Shown: piece by piece, positions 23,685 to 62,032 of the stretch | Layout of the letters: every line of letters begins with the position of its first letter | Numbering within the stretch: position 1 is the stretch's first letter | Assembly (NCBI GenBank): GCA_046757165.1 | Contig: JBHHXT010000006.1 | Coordinates: 780 to 64,779, forward strand | Reading direction: 5' to 3' | DNA length: 64,000 nt | Source: a bacterium | GTDB taxonomy: Bacteria; Zhuqueibacterota; Zhuqueibacteria; Oceanimicrobiales; Oceanimicrobiaceae | Notes under the pieces: generated by a model | What the model saw: only the letters and a program-made list of their open reading frames with translations | What the model was told of the DNA's origin: nothing | Databases searched by the model: none | Translations under genes and position numbers: made by a program

Positions 23685-24554
23685 ATGAGATTCGGTGCCC
23701 ATGTTTCGATTGCAGGTGGGGTGTTCAATGCCCCACAAAACGGCGTGCAAGCCGGCTGTGATGTCGTTCAGATTTTCACCAAGAACCAGCGTCAATGGCG
23801 CACAAAAGAGCTCACCAGCGCCGACGTCGAAAAATTCAAGGCCGAGGAAGAGCGTACGGGCGTAAAAGTGGTGTGTGTGCACGCCTCGTACTTGATCAAT
23901 CTTGGTGGGGATGACCCGCACAAGCTCGATCAATCACGTCAGAATTTCACGATAGAAATCGAAAGGGCAGAGGCGCTCGGGATTCCCTATCTAATCGTTC
24001 ATCCCGGTTCTCATGTCGGGCAGGGCGAGCAGCAAGGCATCCTCACCATCGTTGAAAGCCTCAATGAGGTGCTGGACAAATCTGCGGATTTGCGGTTGAA
24101 GGTTCTCCTGGAAGCCACGGCCGGTCAGGGCTCCAACCTGGGCCACACCTTTGAACAGTTGGCTGCGATCAAGAACAAGATCGAAGCGACTGGGAGGGTG
24201 GGATTCTGTCTCGATACGTGCCACATATTTGCCGCAGGATATGAGCTGCGCGACAAGGAGGGGTACCGCCAAACCATGGACCAGCTCGATCAACTGCTCG
24301 GTGCAGAACACATCGGTATCATTCATGCAAATGACTCCAGGTTTGACCTCGGGAGCAAGCGGGACCGTCATGCGCACATCGGTGAGGGTGAGCTTGGCCT
24401 TGCTGCATTTGCGAACTTGATAAACGACCCCCATTTCAAAGAGGTGCCGTTTATCATCGAGACCCCCGGCGGGCCGGAGAAAGACAACGAAAATCTGGCG
24501 AAACTGCGCAGCCTGGTCGACCAGGGAACCGGCCGGAATCAGGGAGGCGCATGA
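23685..24554 (+). CDS. nfo: Endonuclease IV (AP endonuclease Nfo).
   Basis: It opens with MRFGAHVSIAGG and carries conserved His/Asp/Glu metal-ligand blocks (HASYLINL, HPGSH, LETTAG-like LEATAGQG, HANDS). Confidence 0.85.
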   Translation: MRFGAHVSIAGGVFNAPQNGVQAGCDVVQIFTKNQRQWRTKELTSADVEKFKAEEERTGVKVVCVHASYLINLGGDDPHKLDQSRQNFTIEIERAEALGIPYLIVHPGSHVGQGEQQGILTIVESLNEVLDKSADLRLKVLLEATAGQGSNLGHTFEQLAAIKNKIEATGRVGFCLDTCHIFAAGYELRDKEGYRQTMDQLDQLLGAEHIGIIHANDSRFDLGSKRDRHAHIGEGELGLAAFANLINDPHFKEVPFIIETPGGPEKDNENLAKLRSLVDQGTGRNQGGA

Positions 24555-24588
24555 GGAAATCCATGCGATTCTACCGTGTCATCATCCT

Positions 24589-24642
24589 AAGCCGGACAAG
24601 CCGGAAAGTCTTGCCAAAGAATGACAGAACTTGACTTGTCAG
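24589..24642. repeat. Conserved roughly 55-bp sequence found next to both toxin-antitoxin loci in the window (second, interrupted copy at 55324-55341 plus 55474-55503).
   Basis: The block aagccggacaagccggaa (24589-24606) matches 55324-55341 at 18 of 18 positions. The block gccaaagaatgacagaacttgacttgtcag (24613-24642) matches 55474-55503 at 27 of 30 positions. Confidence 0.7.
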
Positions 24643-24772
24643 GGCCTGATTTGCGATCAACAAAAAAACGCGAAATCGTCTGGATGCAACGCGGGCGGAA
24701 CGGCAGCTATCATGGCGACAAACAGCTCATGCAGCATTTGGGATGTGAGTTTGACCTGGCATTCGAGGGAGA

Positions 24773-25120
24773 ATGAACGTTTTGACAACAAACGAACGCG
24801 CTGAGGTTCCGAGAGAAGCCATCTTGGACGTCGTGGAACAAAAAAAAACCAGGTTCAATCCGCAGAAAATCATCCTCTTTGGATCCTATGCACGCGGTAC
24901 GCAAGGCCCCGGCAGTGATGTAGACCTTCTTGTCGTTATGCCCTTGGAGAAAAAACCGCTCCGCCAGGCCATCGAGATTCTGCAGAACATAGATTATCAT
25001 TTCGGCCTGGATCTGATTGTCAGGAGTCCGGAGGCGTCAATGAGGCGAGTAAAGCTGGGCGATTTTTTTCTGCAGGAAGCGGTTGAGCAGGGGGTTCTTC
25101 TTTATGAATCCGATCATTGA
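24773..25120 (+). CDS. MntA-type minimal nucleotidyltransferase (type VII TA antitoxin-like), apparently orphan.
   Basis: 115 aa with the Pol-beta superfamily motif GSYARGTQGPGSDVDLLVV. The expected HepT/HEPN partner is absent: only a 48-aa ORF (25104..25250, ATG overlapping the stop as ATGA) follows, and it has no HEPN motif. Confidence 0.6.
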   Translation: MNVLTTNERAEVPREAILDVVEQKKTRFNPQKIILFGSYARGTQGPGSDVDLLVVMPLEKKPLRQAIEILQNIDYHFGLDLIVRSPEASMRRVKLGDFFLQEAVEQGVLLYESDH

Positions 25121-25360
25121 AGAATGGCTCCGGAAACCGCAAAGACGCAATGAACGTAAAGGTCAAAATATGATAGCCTGCATTATTCATGAATTGTTTG
25201 TTCGTAGTGCCGCCGTCAGGCGGCCAAAGGCTTTAAAAACAGCACGCTGACGCGTGCACTACAAACTTCAAAAGGCAGCTTTGTTCAAAACTTCTATTCG
25301 GGTATGCGGCTTTGCCGCGCTAGGACTTACTCAGGCTGATGATTTCGACCTAAAGGGAAT

Positions 25361-28069: not shown

Positions 28070-28189
28070 TCTTTCATGTTATGAGTCATCCGTTGCATTT
28101 TTTGAAAAATTGTCGATCACGCAAAGCCGCAAAGTACGCAAAGATAAGATAGCGTGGAAAGAAGAGATGCACCGATAACTGCTTGAATT

Positions 28190-53233: not shown

Positions 53234-54427
53234 ATGCATCGTCAAAATCAGCAGGTTTTTATCGGCGCCCCGGTTCGCACACCGATTGGCAAGTTTGGCG
53301 GTGGACTGAGCTCGCTGACCAGTCCTGAGCTGGGGGCGGTTTCTGCAACGGCAACCATCAACAGGGCCGGCATCGACCCGGACCAGATCGATGAAGTTAT
53401 CATTGGAATAGCGCGCTTGGCGGGGGTCGGTCCGAACCCCGCACGGCAGATCGCTTTCAAAGCAGGGTGCCCGGAGACCGTGCCCGCCTACTCGATCAAC
53501 ATGGCATGCGGCTCCGGGTTGAAGTCCATTATTAGCGGATTCCAAACCGTTGCCCTCGGCGACGCCAACCTCATCCTGGCGGGTGGCTCCGAGAGTTTGA
53601 GCAATGCGCCATACCTCTTGATGCAAGGCCGATGGGGCTATCGCTTGGGACACAGCCAGGTGGTTGATTCGATGTACCGGGATGGCTATCTGTGCCCGCT
53701 TTGCGACGAGATTATGGGGGAGACGGCTGAAAATCTGGCTGAGAAATACGGGATTCCCCGGACGGAATCCGATCAATACGCGCTGCTGTCTCAAAAGCGG
53801 TGCCGCATCGCACAAGAGAACGGGCGGTTTGCAGACGAAATTGTCCCGGTCGAGGTCCCCCTCAAGAAGGGGGCAGTGAAGGTGATAGACACCGATGAGC
53901 ACCCGCGGCCGGAAACGACGCTGGAAGGCCTTGCCAGGCTCGAGCCAGTGTTCAAGGAGGGCGGCACCGTCCATGCCGGCAACGCTTCCGGAATCACCGA
54001 CGGCGCCGCAACCGTGCTCGTGTTTTCCGAGCAGAAGCGCGACGAGCTCAATCTCAATCCAGTGGTCAGAATTGTCGACACCACCATTGCCGGTGTGGAC
54101 CCTTCTCTGATGGGAATCGGGCCGGTGCCGGCCGTCAAGAACCTGTTGCAGCGTAACAATTTGCACCTCAGCGATATCGACTTGATCGAGCTGAATGAAG
54201 CATTTGCGGTGCAGGTGCTTGCCTGCCACAAAGAACTGGATTTTGATATGGATAAAGTCAATGTCAACGGGGGCGCCATCGCGCTCGGACATCCAACGGG
54301 GTGCACGGGAACACGGATAACGGTCACTTTGCTGCATGAGATGGTCAAACGCGATGCAACCCTCGGGCTCGCGACGCTGTGCGTCAGTGGCGGCATGGGC
54401 GTGGCTTTGCTGGTGGAGAGAGTCTGA
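53234..54427 (+). CDS. Acetyl-CoA C-acyltransferase (thiolase II).
   Basis: It contains NMACGSGLKS with the active Cys, NVNGGAIALGHPTGCTG and CVSGGMG. Confidence 0.85.
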   Translation: MHRQNQQVFIGAPVRTPIGKFGGGLSSLTSPELGAVSATATINRAGIDPDQIDEVIIGIARLAGVGPNPARQIAFKAGCPETVPAYSINMACGSGLKSIISGFQTVALGDANLILAGGSESLSNAPYLLMQGRWGYRLGHSQVVDSMYRDGYLCPLCDEIMGETAENLAEKYGIPRTESDQYALLSQKRCRIAQENGRFADEIVPVEVPLKKGAVKVIDTDEHPRPETTLEGLARLEPVFKEGGTVHAGNASGITDGAATVLVFSEQKRDELNLNPVVRIVDTTIAGVDPSLMGIGPVPAVKNLLQRNNLHLSDIDLIELNEAFAVQVLACHKELDFDMDKVNVNGGAIALGHPTGCTGTRITVTLLHEMVKRDATLGLATLCVSGGMGVALLVERV

Positions 54428-54729
54428 TGGCCAGAGTTCCGAAAGAATATCACAAGTTTTTCTGGGAAGTGAAGGCAGAGATGCTGGACACGGAGGAGTA
54501 TCCTGAGTATATCATCGAACGGATTCTGGAGCACGGGACGCTGGAATCGGTGAAGTGGCTACGCAGTACCATCGGGGATGAGAGGATAAGGTCGTTTGTC
54601 AAGACTCGAGGAGACCGAAGCCTGTCGTCCATGACTTTTAACTTTTGGCAATTAATCCTTAAGCTGAGTCCAGAGGAATGTACACGAATGTCCTCAACAA
54701 GACGCAAATACTCATTCTGGAAGTATTGA
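54427..54729 (+). CDS. Small protein (100 aa); probable antitoxin partner of the downstream AbiEii-family nucleotidyltransferase.
   Basis: Its ATG overlaps the thiolase stop (TGATG), and its 3' end overlaps the start of the next ORF by 51 nt. I recognise no catalytic motif. Confidence 0.4.
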   Translation: MARVPKEYHKFFWEVKAEMLDTEEYPEYIIERILEHGTLESVKWLRSTIGDERIRSFVKTRGDRSLSSMTFNFWQLILKLSPEECTRMSSTRRKYSFWKY

Positions 54730-55298
54730 GCCAACTGCCTCTGATCAGGAATTTCTATCTTGCAGGCGGCACTGCACTTGCACTGCACTACGGCCATCGT
54801 GAATCAGTCGACTTTGACTTCTTTTCAGAAAAGCCTTTCTCCCCAGATGAGATATTAGGCGAGCTAAAGAAGAACAAGATCGAGCTTCAGTTCAAGAACG
54901 CGAATACGCTGGGCATCTTGTTTCAAGGTGTCACATGTACTTTTTTTCTTTACAAGTATCCTCTTCTCGGCAGATTCCACACGGTGTTTGAACACGTGCA
55001 GGTCGTAGGCGTATCCGATATCGCTGCAATGAAGGTTGCGGCAATCGCCGGACGAGGGAAAAAAAGAGATTTTATTGATCTGTATTTTGTTTGCCAAAAA
55101 GACTACTCGTTGAGAGAAGCCGTGGAATTGTATCAGAAAAAATACGAGGTATTGAATCACGATTTATATCACGTTTACAAAGGACTTGCGTATTTCTCGG
55201 ACGCGGAGCTAGACTCCATGCCTAAGATGTTTGACAGCGTGGAGTGGAGCCTGGTCAAGAGTTTCTTTGAAAAACAAGTTAGTCAACTTATGGAGTAG
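54678..55298 (+). CDS. Nucleotidyltransferase AbiEii/AbiGii toxin-family protein (DUF1814-like).
   Basis: 206 aa with the FYLAGGTALALHYGHRESVDFDFF motif, which matches the GGTAL...R.S.D.DF signature of AbiEii-type type IV TA toxins. Confidence 0.6.
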   Translation: MYTNVLNKTQILILEVLSQLPLIRNFYLAGGTALALHYGHRESVDFDFFSEKPFSPDEILGELKKNKIELQFKNANTLGILFQGVTCTFFLYKYPLLGRFHTVFEHVQVVGVSDIAAMKVAAIAGRGKKRDFIDLYFVCQKDYSLREAVELYQKKYEVLNHDLYHVYKGLAYFSDAELDSMPKMFDSVEWSLVKSFFEKQVSQLME

Positions 55299-55341
55299 AA
55301 CACACAAGGCTCAAGCCGGACAAGCCGGAACCAACAAAGAT

Positions 55342-55473
55342 TAAGAGCGCACGCGAAGGCGCAGAGCCGCAAAGAATAGGCAAAGGATTCTCTTTGCGAA
55401 CCCTTTGCGCCTTCGCGTCTTTGCGTGAAATCTTTGGTTTTAGGATTCAGTTTTCATTTTTTGCCAAAAGATG
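55342..55473. mobile_element. MITE-like insertion (about 130 bp) with terminal inverted repeats, carrying an internal CGCGAAGG/CTTTGCG palindrome and splitting the conserved TA-flank sequence.
   Basis: The terminal inverted repeats ccaacaaagatt (55342-55353) and aatctttggtt (55440-55450) match at 10 of 11 positions. The internal inverted arms are cacgcgaaggcgcagagccgcaaag and ctttgcgccttcgcgtctttgcgtg. The two halves of the conserved sequence are contiguous at locus 24589-24642 but separated here. Confidence 0.55.
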
Positions 55474-55516
55474 ACAGAACGTGACTTGTCAGATACTAAA
55501 ATTAAGGACATGAACC

Positions 55517-56665
55517 ATGATCGATTTCAGTCTAAGCGATGAGCAAAAGCAACTGCGCGACCTGGCCAGAGAGTTCACCGAGAAGGAGATCAAGCCCGTG
55601 GCCGCCGAATATGACAAAAAAGCGGAGTTCCCGACCGAAGTGCTGCGCAAAGCCTGGGAGCTTGGTTTGATGAACGTACAGATTCCCGAGAAATTCGGCG
55701 GACCGGGATTGGGCGTGCTGGAGGACTGCCTGATCGCCGAGGAGCTGGGCGCCGGCTGCACAGGCATTGGGACTTCCATGATGTCAAATATGCTGGCGCA
55801 GGGGCCGTTGCTGGTTGCCGGCACCGACGAACAGAACAAGAAATATCTCGGTCAGATGGTCGATGAGTTTGCCTTTTGCGCCTATGCCGTGACCGAGCCG
55901 GGTGCGGGTTCCGATGTCGCGGGCATCAAAACGACGGCCAGGAAAGTAGGCAATGACTACGTCGTCAATGGCCAGAAGATGTGGATCACCAACGCGGCGC
56001 AAGCAAAGTGGTTTTTCGTCCTGACCTACACCGACCCGGCGGCGAGTTACAAAGGCATGACGGCATTCGTCATTCCGGCTGATCTACCGGGTGTGGCGGT
56101 TGGCAAGCACGAGGAAAAGATGGGACAACGCGCCTCGGACACGCGCGCCGTGACGTTCGAAGACGTGAAACTGCCGGCCGAAAACCGGCTCGGCGCCGAG
56201 GGGGATGGCTGGAGAATCGCGATGCACGCTTTCGACCACTCCCGTCCGATCGTGGCGGCGGCGGCTGTGGGGTTGGCGCGTGGCGCCATGGAGCATTCGA
56301 TCCAGTATGCGGGGGAGCGCACGACCTTTGGGGTCCAGATTGCCAAGCATCAGGCCGTGAGCTTTATGATTGCCGACATGGCCATGAACGTCGAAGCAGC
56401 CCGGCATCTGGTTTGGAAGTCCGCCTGGAAGACAGACCGGGGCGAACGCAACACGCTTGAAGCGGCCTACGCCAAAGCCTTCGCCGCTGACATGGCCATG
56501 AAAGTCGCCACCGACGCCGTGCAAGTGTACGGAGGCTATGGCTATTCTGCGGAATATCCGGTCGAAAAGATGATGCGGGATGCGAAGATTTTTCAAATCT
56601 ACGAAGGCACCAGCCAGGTTCAGCGCTTGATCATTGCCCGCGAGCTGTTCAGCCGGAAATCATGA
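55517..56665 (+). CDS. Acyl-CoA dehydrogenase (short/medium-chain type).
   Basis: 382 aa with YAVTEPGAGSDVAG, MWITN and QVYGGYGYSAEYPVEKMMRDAKIFQIYEGTSQVQ motifs. An AAGGA ribosome-binding site precedes it. Confidence 0.85.
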   Translation: MIDFSLSDEQKQLRDLAREFTEKEIKPVAAEYDKKAEFPTEVLRKAWELGLMNVQIPEKFGGPGLGVLEDCLIAEELGAGCTGIGTSMMSNMLAQGPLLVAGTDEQNKKYLGQMVDEFAFCAYAVTEPGAGSDVAGIKTTARKVGNDYVVNGQKMWITNAAQAKWFFVLTYTDPAASYKGMTAFVIPADLPGVAVGKHEEKMGQRASDTRAVTFEDVKLPAENRLGAEGDGWRIAMHAFDHSRPIVAAAAVGLARGAMEHSIQYAGERTTFGVQIAKHQAVSFMIADMAMNVEAARHLVWKSAWKTDRGERNTLEAAYAKAFAADMAMKVATDAVQVYGGYGYSAEYPVEKMMRDAKIFQIYEGTSQVQRLIIARELFSRKS

Positions 56666-61952: not shown

Positions 61953-62032
61953 CTCACGCAAAGCCGCAGAGTCCGCAGAGAAAGGAAGGTCAAAAACAAA
62001 CAAACTCCGCGCGCTCGGCGTCTTTGCGTGAG
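61953..62032. repeat. Palindromic REP-like element of the CTTTGCG family after hcrB.
   Basis: ctcacgcaaag (61953-61963) and ctttgcgtgag (62022-62032) are exact reverse complements. The inner arms cgcagagtccgcagag / ccgcgcgctcggcg resemble the elements at 55356-55438 and 14749-14879. Confidence 0.6.

Follow-up and report, generated by a model that had tools for sequence, protein, structure and literature searches.

Why does the same short repeat lie beside two different toxin-antitoxin (TA) loci of a single bacterial genome? The question is raised by a stretch of 64,000 nucleotides (hereafter the window) of contig JBHHXT010000006.1 from the Oceanimicrobiaceae assembly GCA_046757165.1 (Zhuqueibacterota), in which a unit of about 55 bp precedes a gene for an MntA-like nucleotidyltransferase (site 1) and recurs behind a gene pair of AbiEii type (site 2). 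The original prediction, made from the letters of the window, had left three readings side by side: an attachment or recombination site for TA cassettes, a shared promoter or operator, and a short dispersed repeat that merely neighbours both loci. In this study, we have compared the two sites with copies of the unit in metagenomes, on plasmids and on a phage contig, and with the corresponding gaps of related genomes. The third reading proved essentially right and could be sharpened, as the unit is formed by the ends of a mobile element. The 55-bp repeat very probably represents two non-autonomous miniature copies of a widespread, unannotated element resembling an insertion sequence (IS), and nothing ties this element specifically to TA genes.

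The repeat and the family of elements behind it

The unit consists of two halves. Half A, AAGCCGGACAAGCCGGAA, is the same at both sites (18/18), and half B, GCCAAAGAATGACAGAACTTGACTTGTCAG, at 24613-24642 and 55463-55492, agrees at 27 of 30 positions, or at 29 of 32 if the preceding TT is included (24611-24642 and 55461-55492); both identities had been predicted correctly. At up to 3 mismatches neither half has a further match in the 64-kb window, where shuffled sequence gave a mean of 0.15 matches for half A and 0 for half B. Site 1 starts 35 nt past the nfo stop, and its half B ends 130 nt before the MntA-like gene (24773), as had been noted; the second copy does lie immediately downstream of the AbiEii-type pair, beginning 15 nt past the AbiEii stop. 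It had been placed at 55324-55503, which gives the right location with the wrong ends, the copy running from 55313 to 55499. In comparison with the family, the right boundary of the unit lies 7 nt further out at each site, at 24649 and 55499.

Of the two halves, half A serves as the conserved handle of this family, being kept far more widely than half B. At least 120 stretches of metagenomes and one phage contig contain exact half A, family copies lie on two plasmids of Betaproteobacteria, and exact scans with half B of public genomes and JGI metagenomes returned nothing, half B being too variable between lineages. The habitats are soil, sludge, sediment and gut metagenomes, together with the phage contig and the plasmids of the cultured bacteria Paraburkholderia and Polaromonas; plasmid pOLGA1 of Paraburkholderia phytofirmans holds a full-length copy, whose open reading frame (ORF), for protein WP_063501089.1, is annotated as 'ArsR family transcriptional regulator', and a Polaromonas megaplasmid holds a short copy of 235 bp. 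If a slash marks the boundaries of half A, the flank signature CT/half A/YMAAA was present in 59 of the 127 half-A matches examined among viral and metagenome loci. The viral scan gave seven matches, six of which are chance matches in coding sequence of KPDKPE type; the seventh lies on a Mu-like phage contig (L105), where ATCCT and half A are followed by a palindrome of CGCAGAG type and then by a box matching half B at 22/30. The same contig (IMGVR_UViG_3300014205_009228) carries tandem 7-mer hairpin repeats (CTGATCC, GTGAGGA, GCTGAGT) and two copies of a 276-bp element with terminal inverted repeats, one of them directly after the RE-like box (RE, right end, as defined below).

The ends of the element were defined by ungapped comparison of 22 copies (from here on, the slash marks an element boundary). 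The left end (LE), which contains half A, has the consensus YCCT/AAGCCGGACAAGCCGGAACCAAACA..., and full-length copies start with YCCT/AAGCCGG-NNN-AGCCGGAACCAAACAGG. Its core pattern is AAGCCGG-NNN-AGCCGGAA, in which two AGCCGG units are kept and the three bases between them vary (CGT in the subfamily of a protein that we call P0278, hence AAGCCGG-CGT-AGCCGGAA; ACG in the plasmid copies). The right end (RE), some 48 nt long, contains half B, reads ...ATCTTGTCAnnTTTTGACAnCAnTTGACTGGTAAGWGACTAA/, and includes an imperfect subterminal hairpin before the terminus ...TAAGWGACTAA/. At eight or more loci, an ORF for a protein of about 500 amino acids (aa) begins 50-80 nt behind half A plus CCAAACAGG on the same strand, with a half-B-like box directly after the stop codon, and the same LE and RE bound this protein at all of its loci (L147, L226, L157, L175, L203, L134, L228 at NZ_CP014580.1 252808-254322, and L230-L239). 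Judged by these alignments, the two halves are the two ends of elements that form a dispersed family, half A being the LE and half B the RE. The dyads that had been described inside the repeat are modest: 'gccgga-caa-gccgga' is really a direct repeat of AGCCGGA, in which only the two CCGG can pair (4-bp stem), and the tgacag...ctgtca-like dyad is present as TGACA...TGTCA, but as a weak 5-bp inverted repeat.

Both window sites were recovered independently by a sequence-only model (R1) and a position weight matrix (PWM) built from 20 RE sequences of copies outside the window. The top two window matches of R1, with filters off, were 24605-24643 (E 0.012) and 55452-55499 (E 0.21); the PWM scored 19.6 at 55452, the window maximum, and 17.2 at 24602, and the next best of the 128,000 positions scored -0.1. 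Both matches lie just downstream of a half-A copy on the same strand. The LE cores of both sites are identical to the LE of copies collected by the exact half-A search (metagenomes, phage contig) and one base off two plasmid copies. The two sites are members of the family, and they share one RE subtype and hence belong to one lineage within the source genome.

Copies of the element occur in many unrelated surroundings. At least 22 contigs code for one and the same 503-aa protein, P0278. Their left flanks are of at least six kinds, as are their right flanks, and the identity of these contigs begins exactly at CCT/AAGCCGG and ends exactly at GACTAA/. The short copies L210 and L218, whose flanks are unrelated, share 97.6% identity, and two full-length copies from one metagenome (L157 and L175), whose flanks differ, share 92.9%. 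Contigs that bear the ORF mostly measure 1.6-2.0 kb and roughly match the element in length, which suggests that assemblies break at its ends, as expected of a multi-copy repeat. Logan contigs of the window's own strain (L001-L006; SRR29324597, SRR29324606, SRR29324610) also break at both copies: L001, L002 and L003 end close to where site 2 begins (exactly 30 nt past the first base of half A in L001), while L005 and L006 stop inside site 1, in whose RE there is a G/A polymorphism at 24619 (gccaaaGaatg versus gccaaaAaatg). The break of L001 falls at k-1 of a k=31 graph, which would fit another copy sharing the 30-mer with a different preceding base. By eye, LE and RE are unrelated and not reverse complements of each other, so that there are no terminal inverted repeats, and no direct repeat indicating a target-site duplication flanks any of at least 20 copies. 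CTAA spans both junctions (cCT/AAgcc and gaCTAA/), either as part of the element end or as a strict target.

Elements come in two size classes: copies that have the ORF measure 1616-1644 bp, and those that lack it 128-270 bp. In the place of the ORF, short copies have a long, near-perfect hairpin of host-specific sequence, which in several hosts is GTAG-tagged and resembles repetitive extragenic palindromic (REP) sequences. The hairpin of every short copy (L155, L131, L181, L141, L172, L190 and site 2) stands at one position, after AACCAAACA of the LE, and this constancy points to a target that REPs prefer or to a regular mode of ORF replacement.

Site 2 is a typical short derivative, with the genome's own REP-like palindrome nested between LE and RE. 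The 130 nt between its half A and half B form a long palindrome, the whole unit has a predicted hairpin stability of -68 kcal/mol, and the terminus keeps ACTAA. What had been called an insertion resembling a MITE (for miniature inverted-repeat transposable element) between the two halves is indeed an insertion, but of a separate, host-derived REP-like hairpin, and this is the normal architecture of short copies. The palindrome belongs to a REP-like family of its own, because clusters of CGCARAG/CTYTGCG recur at 28120-28143 and 61957-62028. Hairpins of CGCAAAG/CGCAGAG units are seen in several gaps of the window (28120-28143, 55360-55425 and 61957-62028; also 14592 and 25138), and the fragment at 25138 lies just after the MntA-like gene. 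Site 1, in contrast, has neither ORF nor central hairpin and is a further reduced fusion of LE and RE, most likely an immobile relic; its terminus is degenerate (GGCCTGA where the family has TGACTAA), and its left flank CCT (24586-24588), within ATCCT, agrees with the conserved YCCT of the family.

Several observations weigh against reading the two sites as miniatures of a mobile element with its own mover. An empty-site/filled-site pair was found for no copy, so there is no direct proof of transposition. The ORF for the ~500-aa protein is absent from both window copies, and tblastn of the protein against the 64-kb window finds nothing; because no such ORF stands between LE and RE, both copies are classed as non-autonomous. 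Site 1 is the only hairpin-less copy among the 60-odd found, and the left flank of site 2 is CTC (GGCTC), without the usual CCT. No fold of a transposase, recombinase or nuclease can be recognised in the ~500-aa protein, and its role as the mover would follow from its being the single ORF between conserved ends. In addition, the family may already be named in ISfinder, its unannotated status being based on Pfam, NCBIfam, PADLOC, PHROG and PDB. Finally, the only two copies in 64 kb both lie next to TA-type loci, a double adjacency that is improbable under uniform placement among about 50 gaps.

Table 1. Element copies, their parts and adjacent genes in the window, with repeats of the phage contig L105
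Feature	Coordinates	Strand	Evidence or remark
Site 1, minimal copy, LE fused directly to RE	24589..24649 (61 bp)	+	RE model R1 and PWM
LE core of site 1 (half A), two AGCCGG units 3 nt apart	24589..24606	+	Exact match
RE of site 1, overlapping the last LE bases, so that the ends abut	24602..24649	+	R1, PWM
Site 2, short copy: LE, nested palindrome, RE ending ...CAGATACTAA	55313..55499 (187 bp)	+	R1, PWM
LE core of site 2 (half A)	55313..55330	+	Exact match
Central palindrome CCAACAAAGATT...AATCTTTGGTT of CGCARAG / CTYTGCG units, nested between LE and RE	55331..55449	+	
RE of site 2	55452..55499	+	R1, PWM; terminus 17 nt before acyl-CoA dehydrogenase ATG (55517)
Endonuclease IV (nfo), backbone gene left of site 1	23685..24554	+	
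MntA-like nucleotidyltransferase (NTP_transf_2), accessory islet right of site 1	24773..25120	+	
DUF6922 and AbiEii genes, accessory islet left of site 2	54427..55298	+	AbiEii at 54678-55298
Acyl-CoA dehydrogenase, backbone gene right of site 2	55517..56665	+	
Repeat and element positions on phage contig L105	295-497, 5004-5121, 7390-7519, 6673-6948, 11057-11168		

Alternative readings of the repeat

The first alternative reverses the order of events: the LE-RE unit of about 60 bp would be the primary repeat and serve as a landing pad, into which the ~500-aa gene and the REP-like hairpins home after AACCAAACA. It draws on site 1, which is a bare LE-RE unit, on the constant place of the hairpin in short copies, with its host-specific family and, in several cases, a GTAG-tagged REP-like sequence, and on the precedent of regular REP nesting inside other short repeats (PMC3733652). 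We consider it very unlikely, as the bare unit is one among 60-odd copies and has a decayed terminus, and as full-length copies that are identical, yet have different flanks, start exactly at LE and stop exactly at RE, from which it follows that the ORF moves as one with its ends.

TTGACT in half B had suggested a shared promoter or operator, by which the genes next to the unit would be co-regulated. Many copies do have a TTGAC-like hexamer at about 16 nt from the terminus of the RE, an outward-facing -35 box able to form hybrid promoters is conceivable, and the RE of site 2 ends close to the start of the acyl-CoA dehydrogenase gene (Table 1). Against this, no pair of -35 and -10 hexamers at the 16-18 nt spacing of a sigma-70-type promoter was found at either site on either strand, the hexamer of site 2 is GTGACT, without a -10 box at the right distance, and the genes next to the copies, of all kinds, are unrelated in identity and orientation. 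Neither is there a match to an Rfam family at gathering thresholds, with only miRNA-like hairpin noise at E<=1. A promoter function is thus very unlikely. Three related candidates were rejected: half A read on the opposite strand as a 5' leader with a ribosome-binding site (AGG and a nearby ATG), since the neighbours are unrelated and often on the other strand; half B as the native leader of the acyl-CoA dehydrogenase gene (16/22 resemblance in the relative L087), which has no blastn support and is fitted better by the RE model of the family; and sigma-54 and LexA-box readings, which do not fit by eye. A GCAGAAC motif is present upstream of the radical-SAM gene in L089, a contig of the relative described next.

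The reading of the unit as a site where TA cassettes integrate, an insertion hotspot, requires a look at the genes around both sites and at their counterparts in relatives. The GTDB representative genomes hold no close relative, and the best nfo match among them is 49% identical and of no use for synteny. The best syntenic relative, GCA_029261995.1, keeps the backbone over about 45 kb (acyl-CoA dehydrogenase 84% and nfo 69% identical). Its gap between the thiolase and acyl-CoA dehydrogenase genes is 36 nt long and empty, with neither the AbiE pair nor the repeat, and its gap between nfo and the radical-SAM gene holds another small gene pair, an HTH_3 protein and a RelE/HigB-like one (the latter recognised by eye only). 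In another relative (L090, acyl-CoA dehydrogenase 90% identical) the thiolase-dehydrogenase gap holds a DUF2442 gene, and in more distant relatives it is empty and 49 nt long; the DUF6922 and AbiEii pair is absent from this gap in the relatives. Because their contents differ among relatives, both gaps are variable islets in a conserved backbone. Half A and half B were found in none of the relatives compared at the two gaps.

Some details of these islets deserve mention. In the window, the start of the DUF6922 antitoxin-like gene (54427, called on the Logan contigs) is the last base of the thiolase stop codon, so that the AbiE pair fits seamlessly into a thiolase-acyl-CoA dehydrogenase junction that is tight in relatives. 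The MntA-like gene has no intact HEPN/HepT partner (window 25083-25250); a 55-aa ORF that overlaps it has no Pfam match and is followed by the REP-like fragment, and the toxin gene may have been truncated. On the contig of GCA_029261995.1 (L089, JAJDAF010000030.1; 10855-12073), the gene pair after nfo is followed by a duplicated fragment of about 270 nt of the nfo 3' end, an arrangement that looks like an insertion that carried or regenerated this end. Further TA-type genes stand in other gaps, a PIN gene with a small ORF between two MiaB-like genes (L089 16150-16789) and a VapB-like gene before the thiolase gene (L087 8492-8692), and TA islets therefore appear to be scattered along the conserved region independently of the element. 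Elsewhere in the window, three tandem 144-nt units of 88% identity (1740-2171) lie inside the span of a candidate minus-strand ORF (1576-2400).

In favour of an attachment site, both window copies abut TA-type genes and both gaps vary in relatives (the HigB/HigA-looking pair with its nfo 3' fragment; DUF2442 in L090). The evidence on the other side is broad. The unit consists of the two ends of a 1.6-kb, ORF-bearing element, and copies lie in dozens of unrelated contexts beside housekeeping genes, the neighbours of short copies being rhodanese, dsbA, flgJ/flgK, gspK/gspL, uvrC/pgsA, sigma factor and htrA genes. The survey of contigs thus met with many copies that have no association with accessory genes, an outcome that had been named beforehand as refuting the idea, and the comparison with relatives gave the same answer, as GCA_029261995.1 lacks the element at both gaps and has a TA-like pair after nfo regardless. 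No integrase gene is found near the sites in the window, and the TA genes stand to the right of the unit at site 1 but to its left at site 2, which had been taken as a sign of a site-specific hotspot and in fact counts against attachment. We therefore regard an attachment site as extremely unlikely; the repeat has no link to TA genes. Its adjacency to them in the window may stem from a shared tolerance of both gaps for insertion, with TA genes, REP-like hairpins and the element collecting there.

The protein of the full-length copies and known mobile elements

The ~500-aa protein is widespread under uninformative names. Its matches at E<=1e-20 number more than 7,400 clusters at 90% identity, and a profile search of 1.84 billion representative proteins (50% identity clusters) gave 9,765 matches at E<=1e-3 and 1,269 at E<=1e-30; in public records it is called 'hypothetical protein', or 'ArsR family' or 'MarR family' regulator. 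Beyond weak winged-helix matches at the C-terminus (HxlR, ArsR, HVO_A0261_N), it has no family in Pfam, NCBIfam (E<=0.1), PHROG or PADLOC, the NCBIfam models of IS transposases (transpos_IS*) included, and it has no PDB relative by single sequence or profile. The literature search, on the sequence and on matching element descriptions, found nothing relevant. In a diverse alignment of 67 sequences, D20, R21, G103, E112, Y141, Y143, G150, P161, N169, N190, E243, F250, K315, Y317, K319, R325 and E327 are invariant. With this diverse alignment AlphaFold2 gave a confident model (pLDDT 94.0; predicted template modelling score, pTM, 0.82), and with a shallow one the pLDDT was 58.6 and the structural matches were uninformative. 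Foldseek comparison of the model with the PDB returned nothing at E<0.001, the matches being winged-helix repressors at the C-terminus and a weak one to TATA-box binding protein (TBP; 1mp9_B, E 0.03); among predicted viral structures TBP was again the best match (E 2.8e-5), with a TM score of only 0.21-0.26.

How, then, does the element compare with systems already described? The closest parallels for the short copies are MITEs and other miniature IS derivatives. Like these, the copies of window type are short (61-270 bp), have no ORF and share both ends with a longer, ORF-bearing element, and they are multi-copy and intergenic, near-identical ones having unrelated flanks. Unlike them, they have neither terminal inverted repeats nor a visible target-site duplication, and their centre is a host-specific hairpin instead of a remnant of the parental ORF. 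The window copies are therefore MITE-like in behaviour, yet outside the definition of MITEs, which is based on terminal inverted repeats and target-site duplication.

For the parent element, a first comparison is with the IS200/IS605 family, which moves by single-strand 'peel and paste' with a Y1 HUH TnpA transposase. Neither has terminal inverted repeats or a target-site duplication, both have asymmetric ends with small terminal or subterminal hairpins, a fixed sequence stands directly 5' of the LE (YCCT, or CCTAA in our element) with the similar tetranucleotide CTAA at the RE terminus, and both are associated with REP-type hairpins. The difference is that the ~500-aa protein has no Y1_Tnp, HUH, TnpB or RuvC signature and a predicted fold that matches no HUH structure; the hairpins of our element are, moreover, short and weakly conserved. 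Distinct ends without terminal inverted repeats or target-site duplication are also a property of IS91/ISCR elements and Helitrons, and the transposase of IS91/ISCR is close in size to the ~500-aa protein. The 3' consensus of Helitrons is CTRR, which the terminus CTAA or CTAG of our element, with a hairpin upstream, fits. The protein, however, has no detected HUH-Y2 or zinc-finger IS91 domain, and the element has no helicase and does not begin with TC at its 5' end. As for IS110/IS1111, they too lack typical terminal inverted repeats, their single ORF is preceded by a non-coding LE, and members are known whose insertion targets are REPs and other repeats; neither a DEDD_Tnp_IS110 nor a Transposase_20 domain was detected in our protein. 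In summary, the parent resembles IS200/IS605, IS91/ISCR and IS110 in its lack of inverted repeats, and its protein matches the transposase of none of them.

Two further systems have been considered. With REP sequences and REPINs, which are mobilised by RAYT proteins, the short copies share the REP-like character of their central hairpins (the CGCAAAG palindrome of site 2 included), GTAG-tagged in several hosts; LE and RE themselves are not palindromic REPs, however, nor is the protein that goes with them a RAYT. The attC sites of integrons resemble our short copies in having two conserved ends around a palindromic centre of variable length, often beside TA cassettes, but this reading is ruled out by missing core sites, as by eye RYYYAAC and GTTRRRY are absent and the ends are not complementary, the window holds no integrase or cassette array, and full-length copies have an ORF between the ends.

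Movement and meaning of the family

Based on these comparisons, we propose that an autonomous element of about 1.62-1.64 kb would be moved by its own ~500-aa protein, and that this protein would act in trans on the short copies. The movement would follow a route other than classical cut-and-paste DDE transposition, because the ends are asymmetric and have small hairpins, YCCT is fixed, the tip is CTAA, and terminal inverted repeats and target-site duplications are lacking; its features would be closest to those of IS200/IS605 or of rolling-circle elements of IS91/Helitron type. The tandem AGCCGG-N3-AGCCGG of the LE would make a plausible binding site for a winged-helix domain. At site 2, the 187 bp with a very stable hairpin that now separate AbiEii from the acyl-CoA dehydrogenase gene could have local effects.

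It is possible, if at present a tentative suggestion, that the parent represents a previously undescribed class of prokaryotic transposable element, 1.6 kb long, without terminal inverted repeats or target-site duplication, with fixed YCCT and CTAA, a mover of novel fold, and miniatures that capture REP hairpins of the host. The predicted model, read equally tentatively, would consist of two beta-saddle, TBP-like halves and a C-terminal winged helix, and D20, E112, E243, E327, K315, K319, Y141, Y143 and Y317 could together make up an active site of a new kind.

In conclusion, the result for the window is deflationary, in that the repeat says nothing special about the integration of TA cassettes: the feature itself is ordinary, and it is its family that merits dedicated study. 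Should the ~500-aa protein prove to be the transposase, it would represent a new catalytic family and possibly a new mechanism of transposition, and it would also be a practical gap in annotation, since contigs break at the element and its short copies go unmasked as repeats. The constant place of REP-type hairpins inside the short copies could, in addition, be of use in studying the choice of targets by REPs.

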